A DNA stretch of 43,480 bases from an uncultured Gammaproteobacteria bacterium (lineage in GTDB: Bacteria; Patescibacteriota; Patescibacteriia; CAIXNZ01), in assembly GCA_964400885.1 (NCBI GenBank), contig CAYNWH010000001.1, positions 2,768 to 46,247 on the forward strand, in the 5' to 3' direction. How positions within the stretch are numbered: the stretch's first letter is position 1; each line of letters starts with the position of its first letter. The notes beneath the pieces are model-generated. The model was given only the letters and a program-made list of their open reading frames with translations, ran no database searches and was not told where the DNA came from. Position numbers and translations under genes: made by a program. Of the stretch, positions 2,476 through 43,420 are shown piece after piece.

Positions 2476-2501
2476 TCCCTTTTCTCCTTTTTTATCCTTT
2501 C

Positions 2502-2542
2502 TGCGCCCCTCCTTCGCTCCTGCAGAGCTTCGGAGGGGCGCA
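2502..2542. repeat. REP-like palindrome in the leader of the M23 gene
   Basis: tgcgcccctcc-ttc-gctc ctgca gagc-ttc-ggaggggcgca; same architecture (GC stem, 3-nt purine-rich internal loop, inner stem) as elements at 14292 and 22689. Confidence 0.7.
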
Positions 2543-2570
2543 CTTTGTAGTTTTGTTGTTGGTTAACTTT

Positions 2571-2600
2571 TTAACGCGCCTTAGCCACTTTTTTTCTCAT
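2571..2600 (-). other. Putative leader mini-ORF MRKKVAKAR
   Basis: AAAGGAGGTA directly upstream of ATG AGA AAA AAA GTG GCT AAG GCG CGT TAA. Confidence 0.4.
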
Positions 2601-2946
2601 TACCTCCTTTCTTGAATATATTTCAAATCTTAACTATTCGTATATTAGTATTCAAAAGCAACTAGATTTTCAAAGAACTTTTTTAAAAAAATAAAACACT
2701 TTCAAACCTGAAAGTGTTGCTCAACTTCTTTATTTTTTTTTGTTTTTTGTTTTTGTCCCCCATTTTTTTATTTTTTAAAAAACTTTTACTACTTTAAAAA
2801 TAACATTACTAAATTTTCAGTCAATCAAAATTTTTAATCAATTAAATTAATTAACAATAAAAAAATATCCACAGCCAGACATATTTTAAACACAAAAAAA
2901 CTGTTAATGTAAATTAACAGCCGCAATTTTTTTGTGGATATATGAC

Positions 2947-2981
2947 AAAACCCCTGCGCCGATTCATCGGTGCAGGGGGTT
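2947..2981 (-). terminator. Intrinsic terminator downstream of the 3006..3335 gene
   Basis: cccctgcgccgat/atcggtgcagggg stem followed by a T-tract on the minus strand. Confidence 0.75.
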
Positions 2982-3005
2982 ATTTAAGAATGCTAGACAA
3001 TCAAT

Positions 3006-3335
3006 TTAGCTTATTTTGTAAGTCAGAATTGTCATTTTCTCGGGCCGTGGGCCAGAACATAAGGGACACCAAGACAGCTTGACCGAAAGGCCTTTTAAAC
3101 TTTCCAGCTTAGGGAACTCTGGCAATTTGACCAAGAATTCCCAGATTTTGCTGTCTGCCTTGTCCTGCTCAGTCAAATACGTGCGGTTGCCACAACTGCT
3201 GCAGTAAACCACCAGCAGCTCCGGGTCAGCACACTTGTCACACAAAAAATCCCTGCTGCCCTGGCCTTCTATCCCGCACAAACTGCAATGGCCCTGCTTG
3301 GCCTGAATTTCTGTCTGATTTGTCTGACCTGCCAT
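3006..3335 (-). CDS. Small zinc-ribbon protein (4 x CxxC)
   Basis: CSLC, CDKC, CSSC, CPLC; SD AAAAGGAGG; promoter TTGACA(3424-3419)-17-TAGAAT; own terminator. Confidence 0.75.
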   Translation of the reverse strand: MAGQTNQTEIQAKQGHCSLCGIEGQGSRDFLCDKCADPELLVVYCSSCGNRTYLTEQDKADSKIWEFLVKLPEFPKLESLKGLSVKLSWCPLCSGPRPEKMTILTYKIS

Positions 3336-3425: not shown

Positions 3426-4322
3426 TCAATGTTGAGTCAATTGGCGAACTGTTCTTTTGGATAAATGGCTAATAACCTCTTTGGCAATTCCTTCAACAAA
3501 ATCATAATAAGCTTTAACCTCTTCTTCACTGCTATTAGGCTGAGGCAAATCTATTTCTGGCACTACAATGGCTCGGTCATTACGTTTTTTTCTATCTAAA
3601 GTAACATCCAGTAAGACAAGATCTCCTATTTTTTCTTCATCACCGCCTATTTCAATAAAACAGTCCGTGCCATGATAATAATCCAAAGGTGTCAGATCAG
3701 CAGCTACTTCTCTGTCATCAGCATGGCGGTAATAGACTGGTGACTTTTTCTCCCGGCTGGCGGCCACAAAAAACCTGACTTGTTCTGCCTGCTCTGGTGC
3801 CAGGTCTAATTCCTCAACAATCGCTGTACGTAAATCATGGCCAAAACGCGATTTATCAGAATCTGGTTCTGTCGGATCTTGCCAGGGCTGATGTTTTTTG
3901 ACTAATTTTACAGCGGCCGGGAAATCCAAATATACCAAACCTCTTTCTTTAAAATTTTTTTGTGCCTCTGCCCTGGCTTGTTCTGTTGACCAGCCTTTTC
4001 TCTTAGCCATTTCCAAAAAAAGATTTTCAAAATCACTAAGATATGCTTCTGTATTAATTTCAATGCCATGCAATAAATCCCGTTCATACTCATGACCGTA
4101 ATATTTTTCTCTGTTCAGAGTGCTTGGCTGAGGTCTAACAACTTCAGAAATCCCGGGCTGTTTTAAGTCAGGTTTTTGAACAATGCCTTTTTTCCTTGTA
4201 ATCACAGAACCCTTTCTCGTCTCTTTGGCTGCCTGAGCTTTTTTAATTGCAGCTATTTTTTCCTCTGTTAATTCCCCCATTTTTTTTATTTGCGGCACTT
4301 GATAAGGCATTTTTTCTGGCAT
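3426..4322 (-). CDS. Hypothetical protein, possible PD-(D/E)xK-like C-terminal domain
   Basis: 298-aa ORF downstream of argS; motif TPLDYYHGTDCFI...LLDVTL resembles a restriction-endonuclease-like fold signature (inference). Confidence 0.65.
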   Translation of the reverse strand: MPEKMPYQVPQIKKMGELTEEKIAAIKKAQAAKETRKGSVITRKKGIVQKPDLKQPGISEVVRPQPSTLNREKYYGHEYERDLLHGIEINTEAYLSDFENLFLEMAKRKGWSTEQARAEAQKNFKERGLVYLDFPAAVKLVKKHQPWQDPTEPDSDKSRFGHDLRTAIVEELDLAPEQAEQVRFFVAASREKKSPVYYRHADDREVAADLTPLDYYHGTDCFIEIGGDEEKIGDLVLLDVTLDRKKRNDRAIVVPEIDLPQPNSSEEEVKAYYDFVEGIAKEVISHLSKRTVRQLTQH

Positions 4323-4361
4323 ATTTCATTATTAATAATTAAAAATAAACATTTTAAAAAA

Positions 4362-6074
4362 TTACATTTCATCCAAAACAGGCAAACCTAATAATTCCAT
4401 GCCATTAACCAAAATTTGCCTTACAGCTTTGGCCAATTCCAAGCGCGCAGCCCTAATCTTAGGTTCAGCTTTAACCACTGGCAATTCATGGTAAAAAGTA
4501 TTAAAGTCCTGAGCCAAATTAAATAAGTATTGAGTTAGCGCAGAAGGATCATTTAAATTTAAGCTTTCTAAAATTATTTCCGGATAATCAATTAAATCTT
4601 TAATTAATTTTTTTTCAATATTGCTGGCCAAAGCCTGATAATCAATTTTGCCTTTAGGCACTTTGACTTGTTTGCTTTTTTGAAAAAGAGAATATAACCT
4701 GGCCGTGGTGTATTGCAAATAAGGACCAGTAAACCCATTAATATCCAAGGCTTCATCAACATCAAAAGTAATAATTTTATCATCATTAACCTTGAGCATG
4801 CCGAATTTCAAGGCTGCAATTACAATTTTCAAAGCTGCGGCTGCAACATCCTTAGCCAGCCAGTCAGCATGCCTTTGTTTTGTTTCATTAATAACTTTAT
4901 TTAAAGCGGTTTCTCTAACTTCATCATAAGTCACGACATTGCCAGTGCGTGAAGACATTATCCCACTTTTAAGCTGGACAAATTCATAAGGCACATGGAT
5001 CATCTCTTTTTTAAAACCCATCAATTCCAAAATTTTAAAAATTTGTTTTATATACTGGCTTTGACGATTATCAATTACATATAAAGATTTCTGAATTTTA
5101 TACTTTTTAAATTTTTTAACTGCCAAAGGAATATCTTTCAAGCCGTACAAAACTGTGCCGTCTTTGCGCAATAAGACTAAAACTCCCAAATCATACTTAT
5201 TCAAATCAGCAATAACCGCGCCTTCGCTTTTTTTAATAAAATTATATTTTAAAAGCTGAGGCAGCATTCTTTTGCCGTCCTTTTCTTCCTCGCTTTCAAA
5301 AAAATAAAGATCAAATTTTATACCCAGCTCTTTATAAATATTTTTAAACTGCTCCAGACTCCATTGCCTAGTTTCCTTCCATAAAACAGTCAGCTCTTTA
5401 TCACCATCTTCTAGTTTTTTTAAAACGTCTGCTACTTGAAATTTATAATCATCATTTTCCTTAACTTTAGCTGCAGAAGTTGAATAAACGTTACCCAGAA
5501 ATTCGCCACGGGCTTCGGGCAAAGATGGAATATCAGTCTGATTAACAAAGTTTTGCAAATACCAAAGTGTTTTGGCCACATGAGCGCCAGTATCGCCTAT
5601 ATAATTGGCGGCAATAACTTTATAACCGCAACTTTTATAAATATTAACTAAAGCTGAACCAATACAGGCATTGCGCAAATGGCCGACATGAAATTCTTTA
5701 TGCGTATTAGGCTGAGAATATTCAATCATCACTTTTTCTTTTTTGCCTTCGTTGTTTTGCCCGTATTTCTTTTTCTTTTTTAAAATTTCCGGCAAAACAG
5801 TACCAGCTACTTTTTCAAAATTAAAAATAAAATTCAAATACGGCCCAAAATTCTGATAATTGATGATAAACTTTGTCGGCTTTAAATTCTTGGCAAAATC
5901 AGCGGCGATTTCTTCTGGTTTTCTTTTAAACTGTTTGGCTAATTTAAAACAAGGCAAAGCCAAATCACCCATTTCTGCTGATGGTGGCACAGTCAAATCT
6001 TCGGCTTTAATATTAATCTTTTGTTTTTTCAAAAGATTAACGATTTCTTTTTTAATTTTTTGGTTAATAGTCAT
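4362..6074 (-). CDS. argS: Arginine--tRNA ligase
   Basis: GDLALPCFKLAK N-domain, EYSQPNTHKEFHVGHLRN HIGH motif, MSSRTG, GPYLQYTTAR, C-terminal LLGLPVLDEM. Confidence 0.98.
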   Translation of the reverse strand: MTINQKIKKEIVNLLKKQKINIKAEDLTVPPSAEMGDLALPCFKLAKQFKRKPEEIAADFAKNLKPTKFIINYQNFGPYLNFIFNFEKVAGTVLPEILKKKKKYGQNNEGKKEKVMIEYSQPNTHKEFHVGHLRNACIGSALVNIYKSCGYKVIAANYIGDTGAHVAKTLWYLQNFVNQTDIPSLPEARGEFLGNVYSTSAAKVKENDDYKFQVADVLKKLEDGDKELTVLWKETRQWSLEQFKNIYKELGIKFDLYFFESEEEKDGKRMLPQLLKYNFIKKSEGAVIADLNKYDLGVLVLLRKDGTVLYGLKDIPLAVKKFKKYKIQKSLYVIDNRQSQYIKQIFKILELMGFKKEMIHVPYEFVQLKSGIMSSRTGNVVTYDEVRETALNKVINETKQRHADWLAKDVAAAALKIVIAALKFGMLKVNDDKIITFDVDEALDINGFTGPYLQYTTARLYSLFQKSKQVKVPKGKIDYQALASNIEKKLIKDLIDYPEIILESLNLNDPSALTQYLFNLAQDFNTFYHELPVVKAEPKIRAARLELAKAVRQILVNGMELLGLPVLDEM

Positions 6075-6637
6075 AATAATGTCTTATAAATAAATGGTTC
6101 TAATTCTTCTCTAATTAAAAGTCTTGATAATGTTGCATTCTTCTGCATTGCGATAGAAGGCTGATAAGAAAAACCGATATATTCAACTTTCTTCTTTAAA
6201 TGCTTCACTTTTTTTATCGCTGGGATTAAATCAGTATCAGAAGAAATTAATATGGCAGTATCATACATATTTTCATATGCTCCAATTAGTAAATCAACGG
6301 CTAAATGAACATCAACACCCTTTTCATGATAAACTCCGTCATTTTTCATTATGTAGCCCCTCTTAATAATAAAATTTTGTTGGGGTGATGTTAAATGAGA
6401 AAATAATTTTTGTTGCTCTTTTCTTAATTCTTGGCCTTTTACATTACTCTCTTCTGCCTTTACAACTCCAACATAATATCGGCAAGATACTATTTCTCTC
6501 TGCAAAGATAACCACTCTGCCAATCCTCTGTAATTAAATTTTGTTAAATTATTAAAATTTAAAGGAGCAGATCTTAATTTGAAATAGAAATTACTGCCAT
6601 CTATATAAATAGCTACTTTTTCTTTTTTACCAAACAT
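6071..6637 (-). CDS. NYN domain (LabA/DUF88, PIN-like) ribonuclease
   Basis: YIDGSN, EKGVDVHLAVD, LISSDTDLIPAI motifs; stop overlaps the argS start by 4 bp. Confidence 0.92.
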   Translation of the reverse strand: MFGKKEKVAIYIDGSNFYFKLRSAPLNFNNLTKFNYRGLAEWLSLQREIVSCRYYVGVVKAEESNVKGQELRKEQQKLFSHLTSPQQNFIIKRGYIMKNDGVYHEKGVDVHLAVDLLIGAYENMYDTAILISSDTDLIPAIKKVKHLKKKVEYIGFSYQPSIAMQKNATLSRLLIREELEPFIYKTLL

Positions 6638-6650
6638 AATGCTTAAATAT

Positions 6651-6732
6651 AAAAACCCGCCGTATGACCGAAGGCCATAGGGCGGGCGTTTTTAGCTAAT
6701 TTAATAATATGACATTTATTGAGACTTGTCAA
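6651..6732 (-). promoter_or_regulatory. Sigma70-type promoter followed by a terminator-like hairpin upstream of the NYN gene
   Basis: TTGACA (6732-6727)-17-TATTAT, then cccgccctatggccttcggtcatacggcggg-TTTTT ending 13 nt before the ATG. Confidence 0.6.
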
Positions 6733-6780
6733 TATCAAGCTGTGCATAATATTTTTACACCAAATCATACGATATTTTTA

Positions 6781-8007
6781 TTAAATTACCACTTTAACAA
6801 AATGTCTTTTGCCTTTTTGAATCAAGTGTTCGCCAGTGCTTAATTTATAATTTATATCTTCAATAACTTGATCATCAATTTTAATGCCTTTTTGTTCAAT
6901 TAAGCGTTTCGCCTCAGAATTAGAAGTAGCTAAACCCGTTTCCACGAGAATATTAATCACTCCACCTTTTAGAGTATATTCACCTAATTCAGCAGATAAT
7001 TTATAAGTTTTAATTCCTTCAGGTTTTTCTTTTTGCTGAAAAATTTTAATAAAGTTTTCTTTAGCTGCTAAAGCTGCTTTTTCTCCTTTGTAAATTTTTA
7101 CAATATCATTGGCTAGTTTCATTTTAAAATCGCGGGGATTAGCGCCTTCTTTCATCTGTTTGGTCATGGCTTCAATTGCACTCATAGGTTCATCAGTGCA
7201 AATTTCAAAGCCTAAGGCAATCATCTGATCTGACCAAGACATGACTTTGCCAAACATATCTTCGGCTGTGTCGCCTAAAGTAATCATATTGCCTTCGGTC
7301 TTACCCATTTTTTTACCAGTCGGATCTGTTAATAATTTTAAAGTCAAAACAAGTTTTTCCTTGTTTTTTAATTCTTTGAGCAAATCCCGACCAGCCAGCA
7401 TATTAAAAGTCTGGTCAGAACCACCTAGTTCCAAATCAACGTTCATGGCCACAGAATCATAACCCTGCATCAAGGGATACATAAATTCATGGATATAAAT
7501 CGGCTTGCCTTCTTCAATCCTTTTTTCAAACATATCGCGCTCTAACATTTGCTGAACAGTAAATTTAGAAGCCAAATTTAAAACATCTTCAAATTTCAGC
7601 TTACCCAGCCATTTGGAATTAAACATGACTTTGGCAGCATTTTTGCCACTAAAATCTAAAATTGAACTGGCTTGTTTTTTATAATTTTTTAAATTAGCTA
7701 AAACTTCTTTGCGGGGAAGCTGTTTACGAGCAGCCACCTTGTCAGTCGGATCACCAATCATGGCTGTAAAATCGCCAATTAAAAAAATGACTTCATGACC
7801 CAGTTTTTGAAATTCTGCTAATTTACGAATTTGATTGCCGTGGCCAATATGCAAAGTCGGACCAGTGGGATCAAAACCGCAATACAGTTTGATGCGTTCG
7901 CCAGACATTAATTTCTTTTTTAATGCTTCCTTGGTCGGATAAATCATTTCCACTCCGCGCCTTAACATTCTGTCAATTAATTTTTCATCTGTAATTACTT
8001 TAGGCAT
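6781..8007 (-). CDS. tyrS: Tyrosine--tRNA ligase
   Basis: YCGFDPTGPTLHIGH, YPLMQGYD, GGSDQTFN, KMGKT, C-terminal S4 domain. Confidence 0.98.
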   Translation of the reverse strand: MPKVITDEKLIDRMLRRGVEMIYPTKEALKKKLMSGERIKLYCGFDPTGPTLHIGHGNQIRKLAEFQKLGHEVIFLIGDFTAMIGDPTDKVAARKQLPRKEVLANLKNYKKQASSILDFSGKNAAKVMFNSKWLGKLKFEDVLNLASKFTVQQMLERDMFEKRIEEGKPIYIHEFMYPLMQGYDSVAMNVDLELGGSDQTFNMLAGRDLLKELKNKEKLVLTLKLLTDPTGKKMGKTEGNMITLGDTAEDMFGKVMSWSDQMIALGFEICTDEPMSAIEAMTKQMKEGANPRDFKMKLANDIVKIYKGEKAALAAKENFIKIFQQKEKPEGIKTYKLSAELGEYTLKGGVINILVETGLATSNSEAKRLIEQKGIKIDDQVIEDINYKLSTGEHLIQKGKRHFVKVVI

Positions 8008-8126: not shown

Positions 8127-8372
8127 TTAGCAAACAATGATCTCCTGCGGAGGAACTTGAGAATCATCAGGATTAATAAGCTGCAATTTTCTGTAGCCTT
8201 CTTTTCTGGCTTTGAGGATAATATAAAAAATATGAATGGCTTGAATAATAATGGCTCTAGCCGTTGAATGGCTGGAAATCTGCTTTATTTCTTTTAGTTC
8301 TTCGGCTGTACTATTGCCCAAAAGCAAAGTCATTCTTTTATCCTGCACTGTTTTTCCCTCTTGATTTTTCAA
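8127..8372 (-). CDS. Small protein, ribbon-helix-helix-like
   Basis: TTG start with SD AAAAGGAGG; KRMTLLL strand followed by two predicted helices; own promoter (TTGACA 8429-8424) and a downstream hairpin at 8097-8127. Confidence 0.6.
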   Translation of the reverse strand: MKNQEGKTVQDKRMTLLLGNSTAEELKEIKQISSHSTARAIIIQAIHIFYIILKARKEGYRKLQLINPDDSQVPPQEIIVC

Positions 8373-8420
8373 ATTTTTCCTCCTTTTATCCAGATTTAAT
8401 ACCTTACATTAAAAATATAA

Positions 8421-8469
8421 TTTTGTCAATAAATCCAGCTGCTCGCGAGCAGCTGGATTAAAAAACGGC
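8421..8469. repeat. Copy 1 of a ~49-bp direct repeat containing a perfect 28-bp palindrome
   Basis: ttttgtcaataaatccagctgctcgcgagcagctggattaaaaaacggc; palindrome 8432-8459; second copy at 9630-9677. Confidence 0.9.
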
Positions 8470-8507
8470 TCGTTTTCCTTGGCTTACGCCTTGGAAAACG
8501 AGCCGTT
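8461..8507 (-). terminator. Terminator of the 8554..9507 lipoprotein gene
   Basis: aacggctcgttttcc / ggaaaacgagccgtt 15-bp stem with a T-tract on the minus strand. Confidence 0.75.
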
Positions 8508-8553
8508 GAGACTCACTCGTAGTTTGGAAAACGAGCCAATGTTTGCTTAACTA

Positions 8554-9507
8554 TTACTCCTCGTAAATTATCTCTAAGTAGGGTACATCCCCTGTTCCAC
8601 CATGATTACCGCCATCTTCCCACCATGAATTATTCAAAGTTTCTTGACCTTGGCTATCATAGGTCCTTTGAATAAGTTCAAAAGTGAGCAATGAACCTTT
8701 GCGGCTGTTTAGAAAATCTGGCAAAACCGAAGCGTATGTTTTCCAATAGCCATTCAGCGCCGGATACAGGACAAAATGCTGATCAGAGGTCACATAATTG
8801 TGAGCCGGCATCAGGCACCCTTGAGGGAGCCAGAGTGAAAAACCTGTTCTATCTGTGTAATGAGCACAGGTTTCCCAGCCAGCATAATCCGCTTGAGGCA
8901 CCAGTAACTCGCTTATAATAGGAATTACTGTTGGTGAATACGGGTAAGCAAAGGAATCAATTTGATAGATTCCTATTTCGGCTTCGGTAATCTTTTGTGA
9001 GTTCCCTAAGAAACCCAAGTCAAAAGTCACCAAACCATTAGTATTGGGATATCCGTCAGGGGACACATAGTTAGTGTAAATAAATTTATTGTTAGAGTCC
9101 CCCTCCCGGCCAAAGCCTATTGACATAATGACCCTATCATCCTCATATCCTCCCCACCAGCCATCATATTCATTGAGAGAAAAAATGGTCGTGGAGCAGA
9201 TAAAATCCGGACCATTGCAATTATTGTCCAGACCGTCGCAGATTTCAGTGGCGCCGGGATGAACATCTGCATTACTGTCATCACAATCGCTGTTGTTCTG
9301 ACTATAATCATCATCCTTTTGAAGCGCCCAAATCGGGATGTTCGGGTCGCCGTAACCATCGTGATCAGCGTCAAGGTAGAATAACCTATATTCTTTCGGC
9401 GGGAAACAATTCGAGTTGCATTCGCAATCGCGACAATCAATGTCACCGCAACTACTGATCAGGCCCGCAAACACGAGAATCAAGACAAACCAAAGTGCCT
9501 TTTTCAT
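8554..9507 (-). CDS. Lipoprotein with a MopE-type putative metal-binding Cys/Asp repeat
   Basis: Start reassigned to MKKALWF (SD GGAGG); lipobox-like LISSC; FYLDADHDGYGDP and CDDSNADVHPGATEICDGLDNNCNG. Confidence 0.85.
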   Translation of the reverse strand: MKKALWFVLILVFAGLISSCGDIDCRDCECNSNCFPPKEYRLFYLDADHDGYGDPNIPIWALQKDDDYSQNNSDCDDSNADVHPGATEICDGLDNNCNGPDFICSTTIFSLNEYDGWWGGYEDDRVIMSIGFGREGDSNNKFIYTNYVSPDGYPNTNGLVTFDLGFLGNSQKITEAEIGIYQIDSFAYPYSPTVIPIISELLVPQADYAGWETCAHYTDRTGFSLWLPQGCLMPAHNYVTSDQHFVLYPALNGYWKTYASVLPDFLNSRKGSLLTFELIQRTYDSQGQETLNNSWWEDGGNHGGTGDVPYLEIIYEE

Positions 9508-9629
9508 GACTTGTTCCTCCCTTTGGCTACGCCTTAATAGGCCTCTGTTCTCCTTTCTATATATTAAAATATCCTCTCTTATCAAAGAACTATATTTTTA
9601 TAATCTAATATTTTAGCATTTAAAAAGCC

Positions 9630-9677
9630 TTTTGTCAATAAATCCAGCCGCTCGCGAGCGGCTGAATAAAAAACGGC
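9630..9677. repeat. Copy 2 of the palindromic direct repeat; contains the -35 of the lipoprotein promoter
   Basis: ttttgtcaataaatccagccgctcgcgagcggctgaataaaaaacggc; minus strand TTGACA(9638-9633)-17-TAAAAT. Confidence 0.9.
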
Positions 9678-35890: not shown

Positions 35891-36955
35891 ATGGCCAGTT
35901 CCCATCCGCCGAGCCTTTTCGGCACAATACTCAGTAATCTGTTCAAGCTTATTTTTAACAAAAAAGTACTCATTATTATAGTAGCTCCGATTGTCTTGAC
36001 TCTCTGTTATTATTTCCTCATCCCATTTCTGGCCGACATTAATTGGGACTTCGTATCTTCTAAATTGTTCCGGACTATCCTTGCCAGCATCATTGTATTG
36101 TTGGCGCTAGGCGCGCTTATCTGGCATTATGGCCTGGAAACAATGTACGAATTCCTGACAGACAAACTGCTTAAAAAAATCTTCAGCAAGAAAGGCCTTC
36201 TAGTTTTAGGCTTGTTGGCAGCCACAGGCTTATTCTACTTTTTCCTGCTGCCGATACTGTCTTCCATAAACTGGAAAGCCATTTTTTCCGAAAAGATTTC
36301 AGTTATCATTGCTGGCATTCTCTTCTTAAGCGCGGTCATTGTGATCATGTGGGCAGGCGGTTTTCAATTGCTCTATAATTTATTTTCCTGGAAAAAAATC
36401 CTGGTGTTTTCTGCAATTATTATTTTAATATTGACTTCTGTCTTCATTTTCAGGCACAGCAATTACCTGCAATCAAAAGCCAAGATAAGCTGGGCTGAGA
36501 GTACGGAGACATTCAATCAGGAAAATGCCAGACATGCTCAAGAAGTTGATGAACTCGCCAATCAGGTCAAATCACTGGAAAAAAAAGTCCGGGATTTGAA
36601 AGCTGATATTGCAGAGCTGAAAAACCCTCCAGTGCCAACTGGCTCACCAGTCAAAACAACCGCTGCACCGGCTTCAACAGAGGAAGTTACGCAACTCAAA
36701 ACAAAAGTGGAAAATCTGGAAAATGATTTACAGAGATTAAAAGCAAAACGAAATGAGCCACGGCGAATTTTTAAGGTTAATCCGCCATCAAACAGCACTG
36801 CCATAATTGGTGCACCAACTTCAGGCTCACAAACCGATCAAATCATTCCCGGACCCAAAGCTCCACCAAGTGAGCAAATAGGACAAATTATTCCTGGACC
36901 AAAAGCGCCAGGCGGACAAGCCAATCAAATCATACTAGGGCCAAAAGCGCCTTAG
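35891..36955 (+). CDS. Multi-pass membrane protein with duplicated TM module, coiled coils and QIIPGPKAP repeats
   Basis: Repeated IF(N/S)KK..(Y/F)YF..P.L..INW modules; heptad segments; three QII(P/L)GPKAP; SD AAAAGGAGG; promoter 35813-35840. Confidence 0.82.
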   Translation: MASSHPPSLFGTILSNLFKLIFNKKVLIIIVAPIVLTLCYYFLIPFLADINWDFVSSKLFRTILASIIVLLALGALIWHYGLETMYEFLTDKLLKKIFSKKGLLVLGLLAATGLFYFFLLPILSSINWKAIFSEKISVIIAGILFLSAVIVIMWAGGFQLLYNLFSWKKILVFSAIIILILTSVFIFRHSNYLQSKAKISWAESTETFNQENARHAQEVDELANQVKSLEKKVRDLKADIAELKNPPVPTGSPVKTTAAPASTEEVTQLKTKVENLENDLQRLKAKRNEPRRIFKVNPPSNSTAIIGAPTSGSQTDQIIPGPKAPPSEQIGQIIPGPKAPGGQANQIILGPKAP

Positions 36956-36972
36956 TTTCAAAAACATCTTAC

Positions 36973-37003
36973 AAGCAGGCAATTGCAAAATTGTCTGCTT
37001 TTT
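36973..37003 (+). terminator. Intrinsic terminator
   Basis: aagcaggcaatt-gcaa-aattgtctgctttttt. Confidence 0.75.
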
Positions 37004-37026
37004 TGTAAGCTAAAATGATTCATGGG

Positions 37027-37251
37027 TTGACAAAAATTTAAAAATATGCTAAAATGACTTATTGAATTAATTCTCTTAGGCTCCTGAAAAGTTGAATATA
37101 AATCTATTTTAAAAAAATTTGTGTATTTGTAGAATATTCGTGGATTTGTAACGATTTTTTAGTAGCTTAGGCTACTTGGAAATATTAAGGAAATTAAAAA
37201 TCTATTTGGTCTTTAAAATCAAGGAACAAAGCCAATCAAGGAGGTTTTTTC
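37027..37251 (+). promoter_or_regulatory. Promoter and conserved leader 1
   Basis: TTGACA-17-TAAAAT (37027-37055); AGTAGC-ttag-GCTACT 37161-37176; GGTCTTTAAAAT 37208-37219; CAATCAAGGAGG. Confidence 0.8.
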
Positions 37252-38376
37252 ATGAAAAAAGCGATGATCGTAATGGTGCTCATGGCCCTGGCATTTTTGC
37301 CGGCCATGGCGCAAGTGTCCAATGAGGGCCGGGTGTTTTACACCATGCCCAAGATGGAAAAACAGCACACCGAGGACGGCCGCATTTACTTCGAGGTCCA
37401 GGCTGACGGCAAAACCTGGCACATCTACGACCAGTTCGGAGCACCGTTCCCTCCGGGAACCGAAGCCGGCCGCAGCCAACGGCTGGATGGCAAATGGGAG
37501 ATCCGCATCATATACCCGACTGGGGCTACCACCTTGGTCATGGCCAACATGGTGCGCGATGCCCAGACTGGCAGCGTCAACGCAAACGCGCAGATTCAGG
37601 AATTCGATTTCGTGGGCTGGGAACGCGACCGGGCCGAAATCCCGGCCAGCACCATGCCCAAAATCGATGAACTCATCCAGAACATTCAGATCTCGGTCAT
37701 TAAAATCAAGGTCTATGTCCTGGGCGGCGTGTCCGATGAGAACATCAGGCATGCCGAATGTTATCGGGGAGAAACGTCCCCGTACTACCTGCCCAAAGAC
37801 GGAGCCGAAAACTTTCAAAAAGTGACCGGCGAGATCAACAGCGAAGGCGACAACGTTGCCTGTCAGGCGTTGCTGGCCGATGGCCGCGAAAAAACTTTTC
37901 GCGACTATCTGGTCAACCATGGCATTAACCCGGACATGATTCAGCTCTCCAGATGGGGCGGCATCATAGACATTGACAACACGCATTTCAATAACCGCGG
38001 GGTCAGGGTCCTTTTGATACCGATCACCATCTATGAACAGCTGAAAAAGGACCCACCGCCTCCGGCACCAGTCATTGACATCTACCAGATAAACACTGAA
38101 CCCGGACCGCAATCCTATACCGCGCCCCCTCCTCCGGCATCCAGCGAAAGCGACGAATGCTGGAAATGGGCGCTGGGTGGCGGGCTGGGCGGCGCCGGAC
38201 TGGGCTGGGGAGTTTCCCAAATCCAGGTGGATGGCGGCAAAGGCGCTAATAACGCCGGGGATGGCGGTAGCGTCTCCGTTTGTGGCGACAACCCTGCGGC
38301 CTGCATTGGCGGCGGCGTCCTTTTGGGAGCCGGTGGCGCCTACGTGGGCTGCAGAATCTACAAAAGCCGCCACTAG
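37252..38376 (+). CDS. Secreted protein with divergent OmpA-like domain and C-terminal glycine-zipper hairpin
   Basis: Signal peptide ending PAMA; LLADGREKTFRDYLVNHGINPDMI...NNRGVRV matches the OmpA C-terminal pattern; CWKWALGGGLGGAGLGWG. Confidence 0.8.
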   Translation: MKKAMIVMVLMALAFLPAMAQVSNEGRVFYTMPKMEKQHTEDGRIYFEVQADGKTWHIYDQFGAPFPPGTEAGRSQRLDGKWEIRIIYPTGATTLVMANMVRDAQTGSVNANAQIQEFDFVGWERDRAEIPASTMPKIDELIQNIQISVIKIKVYVLGGVSDENIRHAECYRGETSPYYLPKDGAENFQKVTGEINSEGDNVACQALLADGREKTFRDYLVNHGINPDMIQLSRWGGIIDIDNTHFNNRGVRVLLIPITIYEQLKKDPPPPAPVIDIYQINTEPGPQSYTAPPPPASSESDECWKWALGGGLGGAGLGWGVSQIQVDGGKGANNAGDGGSVSVCGDNPAACIGGGVLLGAGGAYVGCRIYKSRH

Positions 38377-38399
38377 ATCTCCTAGACCTTAATATTTTC

Positions 38400-38434
38400 A
38401 GACCCGGAAGTTTCAACTTCTGGGTCTTTTCTTT
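38400..38434 (+). terminator. Intrinsic terminator
   Basis: agacccggaagtt-tc-aacttctgggtct-tttcttt; homologous to 39980-40016. Confidence 0.8.
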
Positions 38435-38476
38435 ATTTTTAAAAAACTTACAAGCAAAACAAAAACATTAAAATAC

Positions 38477-38661
38477 TTGACAAAAAAACAAAAAAATGCT
38501 AAAATGCTTTATTAAACATTATGTTTAAGCTTTCAAAAAGAATTAATTAAAATTATAAATTAATTATTTTTGGTAGCTTAGGCTACTTTTAGATATTAAG
38601 GGAACTAGAGATCAGTTTGATCTTTAAAATCAGGAAAAAACAAATCAAAGGAGGTTTTGAA
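38477..38661 (+). promoter_or_regulatory. Promoter and conserved leader 2
   Basis: TTGACA-17-TAAAAT (38477-38505); GGTAGC-ttag-GCTACT 38572-38587; GATCTTTAAAAT 38619-38630; AAATCAAAGGAGG. Confidence 0.8.
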
Positions 38662-39957
38662 ATGAGAAAAATGTTGGTCTTTTTGGCAATCTTTTGTCTC
38701 TTGGGTGCGCCGGTAACTCCGGCATTGCCCCAGACAGCGGACACGCCGCTGGTTCTCGACAGCATGCCCACCTTGTCGTGGCAGAAAATCGACGGCGGCT
38801 CCATGCTCGTTGTCCAGGCCGGCGACAAAACGTATTACATCTTGAATGGTCAGCAGACCGCTTTTCCGCCCGACACTCAGTCCGGCCGAAAACAAAGAAG
38901 CGACGGCAAGTGGGAAGTGTACTTCCTCCTGCCCGGCGCTGATCCCCAAACCGGCTGGAAAGTTGTCAACACGAACATGGTCGGCAACAACTCCACGCCC
39001 GGCCCCGGGGTTCGGCAAGCCAAGCAGGACCTGCCGCCGGGCGTAATTCCCGAAGGCATGAGTCAGAAAGCTTCGCCTCACACGATCTTGACCGGGTTTC
39101 CGACCGGCTATGCCACGGTAACCGCGGCCATCGAACAGCAGATGGCGCACTTGGTCAAAGTCTGCAAGGACAATGATGTCCTTTGCATTCTTGAAGGCCA
39201 GGCCTCGCGCCTGAGTTACAGCGCTTGCTACGTTGACATGGACGAGGGTTATATTGCCCCACCCAGCGGCCACAACCCCAGCGAGCATCCCAATGCTCAG
39301 CTGGTCAAAGGTGACCGCAACTGCAACGAAGAGCTGGCTCAGATCCGTGCCATGAATGCGGCCAAAAAACTCGTGGAAATGGGCGTGCCCAAAGAGCGGG
39401 TTTTCTGGCTCACGCACGCCAGCTGGGGCATCAGGCCAGGCACCAACTACGAAAACCAAGCGGTCGTGGCCTTTGTCATCAGCAGAAGCTCAGTCAACAT
39501 CGAAACAAACGGTCCGGTCATCAGCAACAATGCTCCGCCGGCCGCCGAATGCCCGACCTGCAACCAGGCCGAGCCTCCCATCATTAACATTCATGGCGAC
39601 TGCTTTGTCGCCAGCCGGCAAAACGACAACGGCCGCTGGACAGTGACCGTTATCTGTTTCCTCAACAGCACTACTCCGCCAGCCCCAGCCTCAACAAAAA
39701 ACGATGAAGGTGATGATTGCTGGAAATGGGCATTGGCCGGCGGCCTGGGTGGTGGAGGACTGGGCTGGGGCGTTTCCCAGATCCAGGTCGAAGGTGGCCA
39801 AGGCGCCGGCAGTGCGGGTAATGGCGGGGATGTCTCCATTTGCGGAGACAATCCCACTGGCTGCATTGTGGGCGGAGCTCTCTTGGGTGCGGGCACCAGC
39901 TACCTGAGTTGCAAAATCTCCAAGCACCACAAGGAGTACAAAGAACACAAAAAATAA
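38662..39957 (+). CDS. Paralog: secreted OmpA-like domain protein with glycine-zipper tail
   Basis: Start reassigned to MRKMLV after SD; GFPTGYATV..LEGQAS..NEELAQIRAMNAAKKLVEMGVPKERV; CWKWALAGGLGGGGLGWGVSQIQVEGG. Confidence 0.82.
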   Translation: MRKMLVFLAIFCLLGAPVTPALPQTADTPLVLDSMPTLSWQKIDGGSMLVVQAGDKTYYILNGQQTAFPPDTQSGRKQRSDGKWEVYFLLPGADPQTGWKVVNTNMVGNNSTPGPGVRQAKQDLPPGVIPEGMSQKASPHTILTGFPTGYATVTAAIEQQMAHLVKVCKDNDVLCILEGQASRLSYSACYVDMDEGYIAPPSGHNPSEHPNAQLVKGDRNCNEELAQIRAMNAAKKLVEMGVPKERVFWLTHASWGIRPGTNYENQAVVAFVISRSSVNIETNGPVISNNAPPAAECPTCNQAEPPIINIHGDCFVASRQNDNGRWTVTVICFLNSTTPPAPASTKNDEGDDCWKWALAGGLGGGGLGWGVSQIQVEGGQGAGSAGNGGDVSICGDNPTGCIVGGALLGAGTSYLSCKISKHHKEYKEHKK

Positions 39958-39979
39958 TCCTTAGTATCTCAACATTTTC

Positions 39980-40016
39980 AGACCCAGGAATCACAGTTTC
40001 TGGGTCTTTTCTTTTT
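39980..40016 (+). terminator. Intrinsic terminator
   Basis: agacccaggaa-tcacag-tttctgggtct-tttctttt. Confidence 0.8.
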
Positions 40017-40032
40017 AAGAAAAACAATACTA

Positions 40033-40223
40033 TTGACAAAATGTCAAAAATATGCTAAACTTCTCAATTAAACTTAACTCCTGAAAAAAGGCGATTTACA
40101 TTCAAAAATAACTTTTTTTCAGTAGCTAAAAAGCTACTTTAAATTATAGAAATGGTTAAAATTTAGGCCAGCCAGCCGAACTTTGAAAAAAAACTTCGCA
40201 ACCAATCAATAAGGAGGAAGGTC
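40033..40223 (+). promoter_or_regulatory. Promoter and conserved leader 3
   Basis: TTGACA-17-TAAACT (40033-40061); AGTAGCT-aaaa-AGCTACT 40121-40138; GAACTTTGAAAA 40178-40189; CAATCAATAAGGAGG. Confidence 0.8.
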
Positions 40224-42146
40224 ATGAAAAAAATGTTTTGGATCTTGTTGGTAGTTATAAGCCTCCTTGCCGGCTGTGCTGGCAAAGGCGGTGACGACAA
40301 CTCTTCAAGCAAAACCACCAATGGCGGCGGCGGTAACGGAGGCGACGGGAATACCCCTCCCTCCGTAACCATAACTGCGCCGGCTAACGGCGCTATCTTC
40401 AACACACCGGCTAACATCATGATCAGCGCCAACGCTTCGGACGATGGCCAAGTGGTCAGCGTGGAATTTTTCTGGGGAAGCAATTCCCTGGGCATTGCCA
40501 CGCAAACGCCCTATTCTGTTCTCTGGTCCGACGTCACTCAGGGGCAATACACCCTGACTGCCGTAGCCACGGACAACCTAGGCGCCAAAACCACTTCAGC
40601 GGCCGTGACCATCACGGTCAATCAGCCACAGCCGAACAACCAACCCCCGACCGTCAGCATCACCGCGCCGACCAATGGCGCCACTTTCACGGCGCCGGCC
40701 AATATCACGGTCAACGCCAACGCCACCGATCTGGATGGCAACGTCACCCAGGTCGAGTTTTACCGCGACGGCGTACTGATCGGCATAGATTTGGTGGCGT
40801 CCTCTGGGTCCTACTCCGTTGTCTGGAACAATGTGCCTGCCGGAACTTATGTGCTGACAGCCATCGCCTATGACGACGACGGGGCCAGCACCACGTCCAA
40901 CAGTGTGACCATCACAGTCACCCAGCCGAACCAGGCACCGACGGTCACTCTGACCGCACCGGCCAATGGTGCCACTTTCACGGCACCAGCCAACATCACG
41001 CCCACCGCCACTGCCAGCGACCCGGATGGCAACATCACCGAGGTCGACATTAACGGCAATGGCATCCTGATCGGCACGGACTTGGTCGCTCCCTACTCCA
41101 TTGTCTGGAGCAATGTGCCCGCCGGGACTTATGTCCTGACCGCCATCGCCTATGACAACAGCGGGGCCAGCACCACTTCCAACAGCGTGACCATCACAGT
41201 CAACACCGGCGATACGGATGGTGATGGCGTCCCCGACGACGTGGATTGTGATCCTTTGGATCCCGATACCTGGACCAAAATGCCGTTCCGACCGGACAAT
41301 GACCAGGATTATCTGCCTGACAGCAGCACTCCAAACAATTACTGCGTCGGCGATCCGGACACTTATCCGCAAAGAACCACCACCTGGACCTCTCCTCTTG
41401 ATCCCTGCCTGGACGACAAGTATAACGCTTGCGTCACTGGTCATTTCGGAGTGGAGTGGGCCTATGGCGACACGGCAGGAACCTGGGAATCCACGGTCTA
41501 TTGGGACTGCGGTTTTCCCGACACATTCGCCCAGCAATGGCAGGCCGCAGGTACGGTCACTGGCAATGCACCGCCGCAAAACCGCGTTATGGATAGCCCT
41601 AACCCGGCTGTTCTGCGCTACGGCACATGCATCGCCAACATTCATGTTCCCGATTCGGGACTGAATCAGTGCAATGGCTGGAATGACGACTGGTTCCCGG
41701 CCGGAACCCCGACCTATGGGTTTTGTTCCAGCCTGCCCAGCGGCTACCCTCACTTTGTCTACTCCAAAACCGGAGACTCGGACATTTGGGGCTCCAGCGA
41801 TCAGCTCACACTGGACTGGGAGATCGATGTCAACACATCCGGCAACGGAGCGAACTACCTAGTCTATTTGGATCAGGGCACGAATTCCTCCGGCGCCACC
41901 GTGGCCATTGACCTGACCGATGCAGACAATGACGGCTATCCGAACGTCTGCGCAGTCGGAGCCACTGGTTGTCACCGGGACAACTGCCGACTGTTCTACA
42001 ATCCGGGTGAGGGTGGTTATCCCGCAATCCAACCGGACACGGATGGTGATGGAGTGGGAGATATCTGTGAAGGCGTCGACGATGATAACGATGGCTGGCC
42101 CAACGCCGACGACCTTTTCCCGAATGACCCCACCCGTCACGAGTAA
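40224..42146 (+). CDS. Lipoprotein with three bacterial Ig-like domains and thrombospondin type-3-like Ca-binding repeats
   Basis: Lipobox LLAGC; three P(S/T)V(T/S)(I/L)TAP.NGA.F..PANI repeats; DTDGDGVPDDVDC, DTDGDGVGDIC, DDDNDGWPNADDLFPNDP. Confidence 0.9.
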   Translation: MKKMFWILLVVISLLAGCAGKGGDDNSSSKTTNGGGGNGGDGNTPPSVTITAPANGAIFNTPANIMISANASDDGQVVSVEFFWGSNSLGIATQTPYSVLWSDVTQGQYTLTAVATDNLGAKTTSAAVTITVNQPQPNNQPPTVSITAPTNGATFTAPANITVNANATDLDGNVTQVEFYRDGVLIGIDLVASSGSYSVVWNNVPAGTYVLTAIAYDDDGASTTSNSVTITVTQPNQAPTVTLTAPANGATFTAPANITPTATASDPDGNITEVDINGNGILIGTDLVAPYSIVWSNVPAGTYVLTAIAYDNSGASTTSNSVTITVNTGDTDGDGVPDDVDCDPLDPDTWTKMPFRPDNDQDYLPDSSTPNNYCVGDPDTYPQRTTTWTSPLDPCLDDKYNACVTGHFGVEWAYGDTAGTWESTVYWDCGFPDTFAQQWQAAGTVTGNAPPQNRVMDSPNPAVLRYGTCIANIHVPDSGLNQCNGWNDDWFPAGTPTYGFCSSLPSGYPHFVYSKTGDSDIWGSSDQLTLDWEIDVNTSGNGANYLVYLDQGTNSSGATVAIDLTDADNDGYPNVCAVGATGCHRDNCRLFYNPGEGGYPAIQPDTDGDGVGDICEGVDDDNDGWPNADDLFPNDPTRHE

Positions 42147-42160
42147 CCATTTCTAACCCT

Positions 42161-42208
42161 AACCGGGCTAAGCTTTTCACCAAGAAAAGCTAGCCCGGTT
42201 TTTTTATT
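42161..42208 (+). terminator. Intrinsic terminator
   Basis: aaccgggctaagctttt...aaaagctagcccggtt-ttttt. Confidence 0.8.
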
Positions 42209-42223
42209 AAATTTAAGCTTCTA

Positions 42224-42418
42224 TTGACAAAAATTTTGCTATATGCTAAGCTTTTATATTAACATTATTATAGACTCTTATAAGCTATTAAGATAAGCTA
42301 AGTGCTATATATTTAGTATATAAAAATTAGTTTTTCTTAGTGGCTTAAAGCTACTTATAAATAAAAGTTGAGGTCATTGACCTTTGAAAAAAAATCAAAT
42401 CAAAAAAGGAGGCTTACC
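42224..42418 (+). promoter_or_regulatory. Promoter and conserved leader 4
   Basis: TTGACA-17-TAAGCT (42224-42252); AGTGGCT-taa-AGCTACT 42339-42355; GACCTTTGAAAA 42379-42390; AAATCAAAAAAGGAGG. Confidence 0.8.
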
Positions 42419-43420
42419 ATGAAGATAAGATGGCTAATTATGGTGATTTTCGTATCGTTTTCCTTGATTTTCTGGAATGGCTGCGCTGGCGGCGGCGGCG
42501 ACGACAATCGCAAAACAGTGAATAATGGCAACACTGCCAACGACACTGACGGCGATGGCGTGGCCGATCCTTATGACTGCGCGCCCAATGACAGCACACG
42601 TTACAACAACGTTTCTTTCTGGCCTGACGCCGACGGCGACGGACTCCCCGATTCCGGGAACAGCCAGCTTTTCTGCGTAGGCGCTCCCAGCACTTACCCG
42701 AATGGCTACACGCCGAATGCGCCACCTCCCCTGGATCCTTGTCCCGGGGATCATGACAACACTTGCGGCGTTCCGAGCGTACCCTACCTGCAGATCGATT
42801 TCGCCTTTGCCACGGGAACTCCGGAATGGACAGTCTATGGGACTTGCTTCCCTGACCCAGCCCCTCCGGATAATTTCCCGGAAATGTGCGAAGGCCAGTC
42901 TCATGAAGGCAGCTGCCTTGGCGCGGTTAATCCCGAAGCCATAGCAACCGGCTATTGCATCTTTGCCATAAACTTCACTCCGCCGGTTTCCAACCATTGC
43001 GGGGACGAAGTCAACTGGTTTCCCTGCCAGAGCGGCGATCAGGCCCTTTTCTCGGGTCTGGATGGCGATGGACTGGGTGGACTCCAAGTCTATCTCAGTC
43101 CCTCTGGTTTGGGCAATGACATTTTAGTCCTTGACTGGGATGTCATTGACAATGGCCAGGGCGGCGCCAACTTCATTGTCTACCTTAATTCAGGAACTGA
43201 TGATGATGGCAATGACATCACAGTCATCGTCGGTATCCTTCAGGACACTGACAATGACGGGATTCTTAATCCCGACGACAACTGCATCCGGGTCGCTAAT
43301 CCTTTACAGGAAGACCTGGACAGCAATGGCGTCGGCGATGTCTGCGTCGGCATTGATACCGACAACGATGGCTGGCTCGATGTGTCGGATGCGGATCCCA
43401 ATGATCCCAACGTCCATTGA
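42419..43420 (+). CDS. Paralogous lipoprotein with TSP3-like repeats, lacking the Ig domains
   Basis: Start reassigned to MKIRW after SD; WNGC lipobox-like; DTDGDGVADPYDC, DNCIRVANPLQEDLDSNGVGDVC; collinear with the C-half of 40224..42146. Confidence 0.88.
   Translation: MKIRWLIMVIFVSFSLIFWNGCAGGGGDDNRKTVNNGNTANDTDGDGVADPYDCAPNDSTRYNNVSFWPDADGDGLPDSGNSQLFCVGAPSTYPNGYTPNAPPPLDPCPGDHDNTCGVPSVPYLQIDFAFATGTPEWTVYGTCFPDPAPPDNFPEMCEGQSHEGSCLGAVNPEAIATGYCIFAINFTPPVSNHCGDEVNWFPCQSGDQALFSGLDGDGLGGLQVYLSPSGLGNDILVLDWDVIDNGQGGANFIVYLNSGTDDDGNDITVIVGILQDTDNDGILNPDDNCIRVANPLQEDLDSNGVGDVCVGIDTDNDGWLDVSDADPNDPNVH

Follow-up and report, generated by a model that had tools for sequence, protein, structure and literature searches.

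Two gene classes with different translation-start signals in a small Patescibacteria genome

Gene layout of the window

We analysed a 43,480-nucleotide (nt) stretch of an uncultured Patescibacteria genome (contig CAYNWH010000001.1 of assembly GCA_964400885.1, here C1 of G000, positions 2768-46247; hereafter the window), in which genes preceded by a strong Shine-Dalgarno (SD) site lie between genes that have none. The results showed that this split runs through the whole genome and through its family, and that two gene-expression architectures coexist in one small genome: an SD-less core, and an SD-led accessory class with its own composition, signals and degree of conservation. The source assembly is metagenomic and comprises 913 kb in 25 contigs with runs of N, at a completeness of 94.7%. 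Its 897 genes were called with a home-made procedure, in which a codon-usage model trained on long open reading frames (ORFs) was supplemented with SD-led ORFs in the gaps; start choice was also home-made. Genome-wide, a gene was scored as SD-led when AGGAG or GGAGG lay 3-10 nt 5' of its start. The bulk comparison was made with one relative, G003, from another genus of the same family (ValS identity 78%), for which 1.135 of ~1.3 Mb was compared.

All 18 strong SD sites listed in the initial annotation were present, as AGGAG or GGAGG 5-10 nt 5' of the start codon, and the start at 22953 has GAAGGT alone, as had been described. None of the 21 other window starts inspected bears AGGAG or GGAGG; these include the hypothetical gene at 4322, rightly placed with the core pattern, and their leaders are A/T-rich, mostly with T just 5' of the ATG. 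An SD flagged by the caller inside the POR gamma gene is an internal site and was treated as a miscall. The window holds the following features.

SD-led starts, first nine of 18: 2475, 3335, 8372, 9507, 13811, 15617, 15996, 17384, 21751
SD-led starts, other nine: 22429, 22644, 23132, 23736, 35891, 37252, 38662, 40224, 42419
1-2475, minus strand: secreted M23 peptidase with a Golvesin_C domain, SD-led; cut by the window end (879 amino acids, aa, in the genome)
3006-3335, minus: SD-led orphan, 109 aa, Cys-rich; GC content at third codon positions (GC3) 0.59
3426-8007, minus: SD-less block of a hypothetical gene (start 4322), argS, an NYN-domain gene and tyrS; A/U-rich leaders with T at -1
8127-9507, minus: two SD-led genes, an 81-aa orphan (TTG start) and a 317-aa lipoprotein-like protein with a MopE metal-binding motif
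9719-13789, mixed strands: SD-less core genes valS (minus) and a DHH-family gene (plus), by Pfam
13811-14020, plus: SD-led orphan, 69 aa; GC3 0.50; terminator hairpin at 14084-14113
14123-14423, minus: tRNA-Val(GAC) and tRNA-Ile(UAU), by Rfam
14494-15549, plus: SD-less core gene queA, by Pfam
15617-17384, mixed strands: three SD-led genes, orphans of 84 aa (plus) and 125 aa (plus, GTG start) and a ParB-like protein of 308 aa (minus)
17510-21069, plus: SD-less core genes for the CCA-adding enzyme, a pseudouridine synthase, cytidylate kinase and bL19 (rplS)
21125-23736, minus: six small genes (starts 21751, 22429, 22644, 22953, 23132 and 23736), five with strong SDs
23999-35694, mixed strands: SD-less core block with a TrmB-type regulator gene, uvrA, the pyruvate:ferredoxin oxidoreductase genes (POR/TPP/Fer4/POR_N), a DsbA-like gene, secG and the genes for a solute-binding protein and RNase J
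35891-43420, plus: GC-rich island (GC 0.42-0.58) of five SD-led genes (starts 35891, 37252, 38662, 40224 and 42419)

The pattern AGGAGN{4,10}ATG occurred 16 times in the window, a number attained in none of 100 shuffles (mean 6.94, sd 2.76). All but one of the window matches coincide with claimed starts (15 of 16), and the three claimed starts outside the pattern have TTG, GTG or GGGAGG. The two classes also differed in conservation: among window genes with a G003 reciprocal best hit of at least 45% identity, 1 of 20 has an SD (the M23 peptidase gene, 1-2475), compared with 17 of 20 among those without such a hit (Fisher p = 4e-7). The whole window is collinear with G003 C1:97-46329, and SD genes occupy the same gaps between the same core genes.

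A Pfam family (E <= 1e-5) was found in all 20 SD-less genes tested: argS, the NYN-domain gene, tyrS, valS, the DHH-family gene, queA, the genes for the CCA-adding enzyme and the pseudouridine synthase, cmk, rplS, the TrmB-type regulator gene, uvrA, the four pyruvate:ferredoxin oxidoreductase genes, the DsbA-like gene, secG and the genes for the solute-binding protein and RNase J. Five of the 19 SD-class genes (22753-22953 included) had a family above the curated cut-off (M23 peptidase, MopE motif, ParB, Big_7 and TSP_3). The SD-less hypothetical gene at 4322 had no Pfam family.

The initial annotation had most SD genes inserted singly between core genes. This holds in part, as there are clusters at 21125-23736 (six genes) and 35891-43420 (five genes). 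The SD of the M23 peptidase gene, AAAAGGAG, lies 9 nt 5' of the ATG at 2475; its GC3 is 0.45, and its G003 orthologue (61% identical) is likewise SD-led. For the orphan at 3006-3335, the promoter (TTGACA/TAGAAT) lies at 3424-3396 and the hairpin at 2951-2978. Both genes of 8127-9507 sit behind copies of a 71-nt hairpin-plus-TTGACA module (8394-8464 and 9603-9673; 77% identity), and the block at 15617-17384 has promoters at 15938-15966 and 17458-17430 and terminators at 16377-16400 and 16447-16422. No Pfam family was found in any of the six genes at 21125-23736; two of them (21125-21751 and 21848-22429) have SD-led orthologues in the same G003 slot (32% and 36% identity).

The island at 35891-43420 encodes a coiled-coil protein, two weakly OmpA-like paralogues, a Big_7 Ig-domain protein and a TSP_3-repeat protein. 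A promoter of the form TTGACAAAA-N-TATGCTAAAAT stands in four copies (37024, 38474, 40030 and 42221) before the last four genes, the first gene has its own TTGACA/TAAAAT site (35813-35840), and hairpin terminators follow the first three genes. The genes at 37252-38376 and 38662-39957 are paralogues that share a 218-nt C-terminal repeat (73% identity) and homologous leaders. Their likeness to OmpA-family peptidoglycan-binding proteins is weak (Pfam 20.2 bits, below the cut-off), and a protein-atlas match of 37252-38376 to OmpA-family clusters (score 0.81) serves as a lead.

Rfam found two tRNAs only in the window. The DHH-family gene and queA flank the slot in which the tRNA-Ile, with a genomic TAT anticodon (14350-14423), adjoins tRNA-Val(GAC).

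SD sites and base composition across the genome

SD presence tracked gene class throughout G000, where 164 of 897 genes were SD-led and 733 were SD-less. Predicted pairing with the resident 16S tail of -8 kcal/mol or stronger was found at 177 of 897 starts, whereas internal ATGs taken as controls gave 33 of 836. In the range from -8 to -6 kcal/mol the counts were 18 starts and 58 controls. The distribution of pairing energy is thus bimodal, and the remaining starts pair less strongly than control internal ATGs. AGGAG most often stands 6-8 nt from the start. In the accessory class, a purine-rich motif complementary to the 16S tail lies ~5-10 nt 5' of the start and is conserved in orthologues.

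The SD genes are GC-richer (GC3 0.440 vs 0.289; GC 0.435 vs 0.344) and shorter (mean 191 aa vs 313 aa) than the others. Their share rises with GC3, from 45 of 718 genes at GC3 of 0.35 or below, through 26 of 74 at 0.35-0.40, to 93 of 105 above 0.40. GC1, GC2 and amino-acid use (GC1 and GC2 being GC content at first and second codon positions) are likewise shifted, the last in the manner of GC-richer genomes. About 6% of low-GC3 genes were flagged as SD-led, which is near the rate of chance internal motifs; many of these flags probably arose by chance, and the real SD class is therefore nearer 120-130 genes. The accessory class makes up about 15-18% of genes. Its members lie, alone or in small clusters, on every contig >12.1 kb, and runs of SD and SD-less genes along the genome numbered 210, compared with 269 (sd 9) after shuffling.

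The same split was found in G003, where 290 of 1158 genes are SD-led (GC3 0.39 vs 0.33) and T stands at -1 in 69% (first 400 kb). The 46% GC genome of another family, G028, of which 200 kb was examined, is also SD-poor, with 26 SD genes among 195 and T at -1 in 57%.

Functions of the SD-led genes

We typed 20 SD genes outside the window by Pfam, picked as conserved or very GC-rich, and 12 of them had a family above the cut-off. The families included SAICAR synthetase, AIR carboxylase, AICARFT/IMPCHase, adenylosuccinate lyase and GAR synthetase, together with a formyltransferase, adenylosuccinate synthetase, a PurF-like amidotransferase and GMP synthase; outside purine synthesis they were DapB, an amidohydrolase and a metallo-beta-lactamase-fold protein. 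By gene name, the sampled set includes genes like purC, E, H, B, D, N, A and F, guaA and dapB. The SD class also includes orphans, surface proteins, a ParB homologue and proteins with signal-peptide or lipoprotein-type N-termini.

The genome holds a near-complete purine-synthesis set (purF, D, N, E, C, B, H, A-like and guaA), all SD-led and GC-rich, at the following places in G000.

C2:38098-44422
C2:70504-71802
C4:18476-20056
C8:8273-9835
C10:7986-9695
C18:18330-19655

To our knowledge, biosynthetic genes of the kinds found among the 12 are usually lacking in bacteria of the Candidate Phyla Radiation (CPR), and a near-complete purine-synthesis set is unusual.

Two simple functional accounts of the class were rejected. 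SD genes are not the secreted ones, an N-terminal hydrophobic stretch being found in 24% of SD genes and 27% of the others. Nor are they the highly expressed ones: typical genes of that kind, encoding EF-Tu, EF-G, GroEL, RpoB and FtsZ, have no SD.

Promoters, leaders and terminators

The statement that most SD genes have their own promoter and terminator proved largely right: 10 of the 13 promoter-like sites in the window with a perfect TTGACA precede SD genes. Across the genome, TTGACN-16/18-TAnnnT was found within 120 nt 5' of 81 of 164 SD genes, compared with 56 of 733 others, and a hairpin with a T-run terminator 3' of 96 of 164 and 147 of 733, respectively. Many SD genes form a unit of their own. 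It opens with a TTGACA-17-TAnnnT promoter, whose -10 box is separated from the start by a leader of ~44 nt (median); AAAGGAGG lies 6-9 nt 5' of the start, and the unit closes with a terminator made of a hairpin and a T-run. Neighbouring SD cassettes carry duplicate copies of promoter, leader and terminator modules (repeat families D4, D7, D8 and D11), and modules of a terminator hairpin plus promoter recur before neighbouring SD genes of unrelated sequence.

Several SD genes share a motif resembling GGCGGAC(G)AAGGGAGG, with a complementary CCGCC/CCTCC stretch 5' of it; such sites lie upstream of g0807 (C18:19655), g0780 (C17:15509), g0366 (C5:63141 region) and g0138 (C2:56600 region). Judged by base complementarity, the motif and its complement may form a candidate hairpin that masks or presents the SD.

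Upstream of SD-less genes, TGCTATAAT, an extended -10 box, is enriched in the last 60 nt, and core genes often have an extended -10 promoter alone, with no -35 box. In these sequences TAnWAT ends 6-11 nt 5' of the start 0.15 times per gene, compared with ~0.09 in neighbouring bins; leaderless core mRNAs, having no 5' UTR, would show a -10 box ~6-12 nt from the start codon. Tandem repeats of a 6-9-nt unit (e.g. TACTAAT...) occur in the leaders of 20% of SD-less genes and 7% of SD genes. Repeat-bearing core leaders in the window lie at 33892-33973, 12620-12652, 27697-27726, 28806-28835 and many other places. The RNase J gene, for example, is preceded by CCATTAT x3, and leaders elsewhere carry the TACTAAT/ACTAATT family. 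By BLASTN, 94 upstream regions, mostly of SD-less genes, join one similarity cluster.

Conservation in relatives

We compared the proteins of G000 with G003. A BLASTP match was found for 564 of 733 SD-less genes, compared with 48 of 164 SD genes. Among 561 reciprocal best hits, 502 were SD-less in both genomes, 30 were SD-led in both and 29 were discordant; most discordant pairs had truncated alignments, pointing to start miscalls. The SD was thus kept in 30 between-genus pairs (24-76% protein identity). Mean identity was 44% for SD/SD pairs and 67% for core pairs. The initial annotation had asked whether SD presence might fail to track gene class, or whether SDs belong to very recent transfers and decay in relatives; we found SD presence to follow gene class genome-wide and the SDs to stand without decay in G003.

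Positions were also shared between the genera. Among 406 syntenic slots, SD genes occupy 62 in G000, 80 in G003 and 40 in both (odds ratio 13.8). Their occupants mostly differ: 46 of the 67 G000 SD genes in common slots have no similar slot-mate. We followed three SD genes beyond G003. Of 14 family genomes, 2 have purC at full length; purA turned up in 72 of 400 other Patescibacteria sampled (best identity 45%), and the window gene 35891-36955 had one weak match among 40 relatives. The guaA and purB pairs of G000 and G003 are 34% and 30% identical. The SD class therefore has the atypical composition and patchy distribution of genomic islands, the patchiness being judged from G003 and these three genes.

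A chimeric assembly, or a bin contaminated so that an SD-using, GC-richer organism is mixed with an SD-less one, might be suspected from a metagenome assembly of 25 contigs with runs of N. However, core and SD genes are intermingled gene by gene in all contigs >12.1 kb, and the same interleaving recurs at the same slots in G003. In addition, contigs of public sequencing runs bridge core/SD borders at 99-100% identity; those of run X1, which may be the source sample, do so with 0-2 differences (e.g. 17965-24248, 0 differences), and two further runs, X2 and X3, gave short pieces that are identical in core and SD genes alike. The organism is present in salt-marsh metagenomes, and a look-up of public runs gave 11 of DNA type and none of RNA. 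Because X1 contigs bridge the borders and G003 is syntenic, we regard an assembly artefact as excluded.

Start sites of core genes and the ribosome

The proposal of a different translation regime is true as a description, an SD-led class standing beside an SD-independent class with U at -1. At SD-less starts, position -1 is T in 70% of cases and positions -6 to -4 are A in 54-57%; G accounts for 4-9% over the last ten positions. Both tRNA(CAU) genes have A37, and pairing of U(-1) with A37 has been shown in Escherichia coli in the available text of Hollerer and Jeschek (2023, PMC10018350). Core genes are AT-rich, vertically inherited and tightly packed. Initiation on them may be independent of the SD: a 30S subunit with four-domain bS1 would bind the unstructured, G-poor leader, and the start would be fixed by four-base pairing of UAUG with the initiator tRNA (A37).

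On the ribosome side, where the initial annotation had suggested inspecting the 16S 3' end and bS1, bS21 and bS18, the anti-SD is the variant CAUCUCC instead of CACCUCC, with the CUCCU core retained. The tail is GGACCAUCUCCUUUCU in 5 of 5 family genomes examined and the canonical GGAUCACCUCCUUUCU in 8 of 8 genomes examined from other families of the class; in G000 it reads ...CCAUCUCCUUUCU. Since the CUCCU core is kept, AAAGGAGG can pair with the resident tail, with one G-U pair. The proteins bS1 (four domains), bS21, bS18 and uL1 are all present. The bS21 hit scored 22.8 bits, below the Pfam cut-off, and its PDB matches are bS21; the Flavobacterium johnsoniae bS21 was absent from the 16 PDB matches of bS21. 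The protein was found in 78 of 81 class genomes, with a conserved C-terminal motif, (K/R)EYLKKIGKL.EE, whose tyrosine is present in 21 of 22 aligned sequences (L143-L172, L190-L200).

Among core-type genes, rpsU, which encodes bS21, stands alone in matching the resident 16S tail over a long stretch. Twelve of 13 family genomes have GGAGA upstream of it, 8 of them as GGAGAUG, and none of the 13 has GGAGG; four family genomes have the extended SD AAAGGAGAUGG, and complementarity to the 16S tail reaches 11 nt. In other families, AGGUG stands upstream of rpsU in 22 of 28 genomes (e.g. GAAAGGAGGUGA). Covariation of the rpsU SD and the anti-SD is evidence for pairing in Flavobacteriales with a variant anti-SD, according to the available text of PMC9976891. 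Because the rpsU SD has co-varied with the anti-SD variant, SD pairing appears to be in use in the family. The bS18 gene (rpsR) has no SD, and the RF2 gene is one unshifted ORF, hence without a prfB frameshift site as a second native SD.

The accessory SDs ignore the variant: G follows GGAG in 143 of 164 accessory SDs in G000 and 227 of 290 in G003, and GUG follows it 21 and 18 times, compared with 0 and 2 times for AUG.

Accessory SDs of the form GGAGGUG thus fit a canonical bacterial anti-SD better than the resident CAUCUCC, as would be the case if host ribosomes translated these genes after delivery of mRNA or DNA to the host cell, which had been raised as a speculation. Against this, the resident tail still pairs with AAAGGAGG through one G-U pair, many SD products have signal- or lipoprotein-like N-termini or are a ParB homologue and intracellular purine enzymes, and no transfer mechanism was found linked to SD genes. 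Given the export signals, the cytoplasmic enzymes and the pairing with the resident tail, translation by host ribosomes is very unlikely.

Another explanation places the switch in the resident ribosome. Here bS21, with bS18 and bS6, would hide the anti-SD, ribosomes lacking bS21 would alone read SD-led mRNAs, and the SD genes (15-25%) would form a regulon tied to bS21 occupancy, for instance to growth state or host contact. The extended rpsU SD that co-varies with the anti-SD variant favours it, being a hallmark described for Flavobacteriales in the text available from PMC9976891 and PMC13000453, as does a core genome that is SD-poor despite a retained anti-SD core. The bS21 motif EYLKKIGK with its tyrosine may likewise recall Tyr54 of Bacteroidia, as given in the accessible part of PMC7797042. 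However, Flavobacteriales typically have one strong-SD gene in the portion of PMC9976891 consulted, compared with at least 130 here, a number that a usable anti-SD fits better than a hidden one. In addition, bS18 lacks an SD, and an SD on rpsU is ordinary in SD-using bacteria too. We give such a regulon a modest chance of being right. A stricter form, in which bS21 occupancy acts as a global switch, the SD-less core being read by ribosomes with bS21 bound and the 130-290 accessory genes by those free of it, appears doubtful. Its regulon of surface proteins, nucleotide-synthesis genes and orphans may then be a host-facing programme, and the accessory G, which pairs with both tails, would make the genes usable in any recipient lineage.

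The Pfam RF-1 domain search of the genome found one class-I release factor, RF2-like with an SPF motif. Matches lay at G000 C6:61550-62644 and C3:16371-16769, the second being ArfB-like (132 aa). No RF1 was found by this search, though TAG ends 110 of 897 gene calls; as the genome is 94.7% complete, RF1 may be unassembled.

Origin and maintenance of the SD-led class

We consider it probable (roughly 60%) that the genome combines an SD-independent core with a set of accessory genes exchanged horizontally, whose canonical signals are retained by selection. Exchange is favoured by the composition and patchiness of the SD genes, by the change of occupants in their slots and by SDs that match the canonical tail. 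Under this reading, purine-synthesis genes, surface proteins and orphans would be gained and exchanged horizontally, and would be initiated by ordinary pairing of SD and anti-SD on private transcripts. Selection would keep the SD because GC-richer, more structured 5' ends presumably cannot use the A/U-rich route. The units are GC-richer, poorly conserved and fast in turnover, and sit in recurrent slots between core blocks.

Several observations weigh against horizontal exchange. No donor emerged: PurA matched Proteobacteria and Patescibacteria alike at ~40% identity, and as the matches (~37-49%, mostly Proteobacteria metagenome-assembled genomes) were pattern-matched and not nearest neighbours, we make no donor claim. 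Pfam showed no integrase among the window genes, and a repeat scan of the window showed no flanking or attachment-site-like repeats besides the duplicated promoter and terminator modules. The intergenic DNA 5' of SD genes is as AT-rich as that of the core (GC 0.295 vs 0.284), so promoters and leaders look resident and the coding parts alone foreign. Similar slot-mates (at least 25 bits) were found for 21 of the 67 G000 SD genes in common slots, compared with 0.4% for random slots; about a third are thus recognisable orthologues, and part of the class is therefore old. SD genes shared by G000 and G003 have GC3 of 0.465 and 0.405, compared with 0.286 and 0.338 in the core, with no drift to the genome value, and their GC3 correlates between the genera (r = 0.63). 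Imports of long standing would not be expected to show such high, correlated GC3, which agrees with a native class that is being maintained. The canonical G at the variant position is kept even in SD orthologue pairs.

These points raise the alternative of an old resident class: native, fast-evolving genes in which SD, promoter, terminator and GC3 are kept for expression level or mRNA stability, and whose conserved slots reflect orthology eroded past recognition. It would account for the 30 pairs with conserved SD state, the correlated GC3, the shared slots (odds ratio 13.8) with their similar slot-mates, and upstream DNA of resident composition. It is at odds with the patchiness of purC and purA, with guaA and purB pairs at 34% and 30% identity compared with 67% for the core, and with the 46 of 67 common-slot genes that have no similar slot-mate. 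Moreover, accessory SDs track the canonical anti-SD while the native rpsU SD has adapted to the variant, and amino-acid composition is shifted as in GC-richer genomes. We give this alternative a small chance. AT-rich upstream DNA, undrifted GC3 and the retained G fit it and the ribosome-linked regulon better than they fit a simple picture of import followed by decay; both can be combined with a horizontal origin.

The suggestion of acquired genes that keep their SD under selection fits best overall, through distinct composition, low conservation, patchiness where tested and the SD-keeping pairs, but the missing donor, the resident-like upstream DNA and the undrifted GC3 weigh against it. An SD together with high GC3 and a private promoter and terminator gives a simple sequence mark for accessory, probably exchanged and host-facing CPR genes. 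Gene finders and start-site models need two initiation models for such genomes, and the expression of acquired genes in CPR cells becomes a testable question.

Comparison with known systems

Like genomic islands and integration hot spots, the SD units have atypical GC, low conservation and recurrent positions between core genes across genera. They differ in being tiny, often one gene, and many, filling 62 of 406 slots. We saw neither an integrase nor flanking repeats nor attachment sites linked to tRNA genes, and the non-coding flanks are of resident composition.

Variant or missing anti-SDs and SD scarcity are already in print for some CPR lineages. The available text of Tsurumaki et al. (2022, PMC9297842) describes lineages lacking the CCUCC(U) motif, including roughly half of Parcubacteria, and that of a second study (PLoS One 2024, PMC10783764) describes SD-scarce genomes of Wolfebacteria, Campbellbacteria, SR1 and Peribacter. 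The family studied here, whose 16S has no CCUCCU, would count among the motif-less Parcubacteria of PMC9297842. Both papers, supplements aside, treat genomes whole, and their available text contains no second SD-rich class, its composition or rpsU covariation. Tsurumaki et al. suggest there that SD helices are not formed, whereas the present family retains the CUCCU core and apparently uses it. In the literature available to us on SD in Patescibacteria, CPR and Parcubacteria and on horizontally transferred genes, supplements of the cited papers aside, we found no description of an SD-led, GC-rich accessory class or of rpsU covariation in CPR.

The U at -1 in 70% of core genes, with A37 in both tRNA(CAU) genes, resembles the pairing described in the accessible portion of PMC10018350. 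There it has a modest modulating effect in E. coli; in the majority class studied here, no positional signal is stronger than U at -1, and its role in initiation is putative.

SD-poor translation is mechanistically understood in Bacteroidia only. The upstream adenines of Bacteroidia reportedly lie at A -3, -6, -12 and -13. SD-blind translation and rpsU autoregulation have been described in F. johnsoniae, in the text available from Jha et al. (2021, PMC7797042), McNutt et al. (2023, PMC9976891) and Naeem et al. (2026, PMC13000453). In that system the 16S 3' tail lies in a pocket of bS21 (Tyr54), bS18 and bS6; according to PMC7797042, Tyr54 is a signature residue of Bacteroidia bS21, whose C-terminus is less basic. 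Here a possible likeness lies in the bS21 tyrosine motif, as read from sequence. The start signature also differs, being U at -1 with A at -4 to -6 here and upstream adenines in the Bacteroidia papers so far as their available text goes. As in Bacteroidia, most genes here (733 of 897) have no SD while 16S keeps the anti-SD core, and rpsU carries an extended SD matching the variant anti-SD (GGAGAUG vs CAUCUCC); Chryseobacteria, in the part of PMC9976891 at hand, have a variant anti-SD, UCUCA, with a matching change in the rpsU SD. Unlike the Bacteroidia described in these sources, the present genomes carry strong SDs in 15-25% of genes, not one, and belong to a different phylum. Covariation of the rpsU SD with a variant anti-SD is thus a hallmark now seen in an unrelated phylum of ultra-small bacteria, where it coexists with a large second class of SD-led genes.

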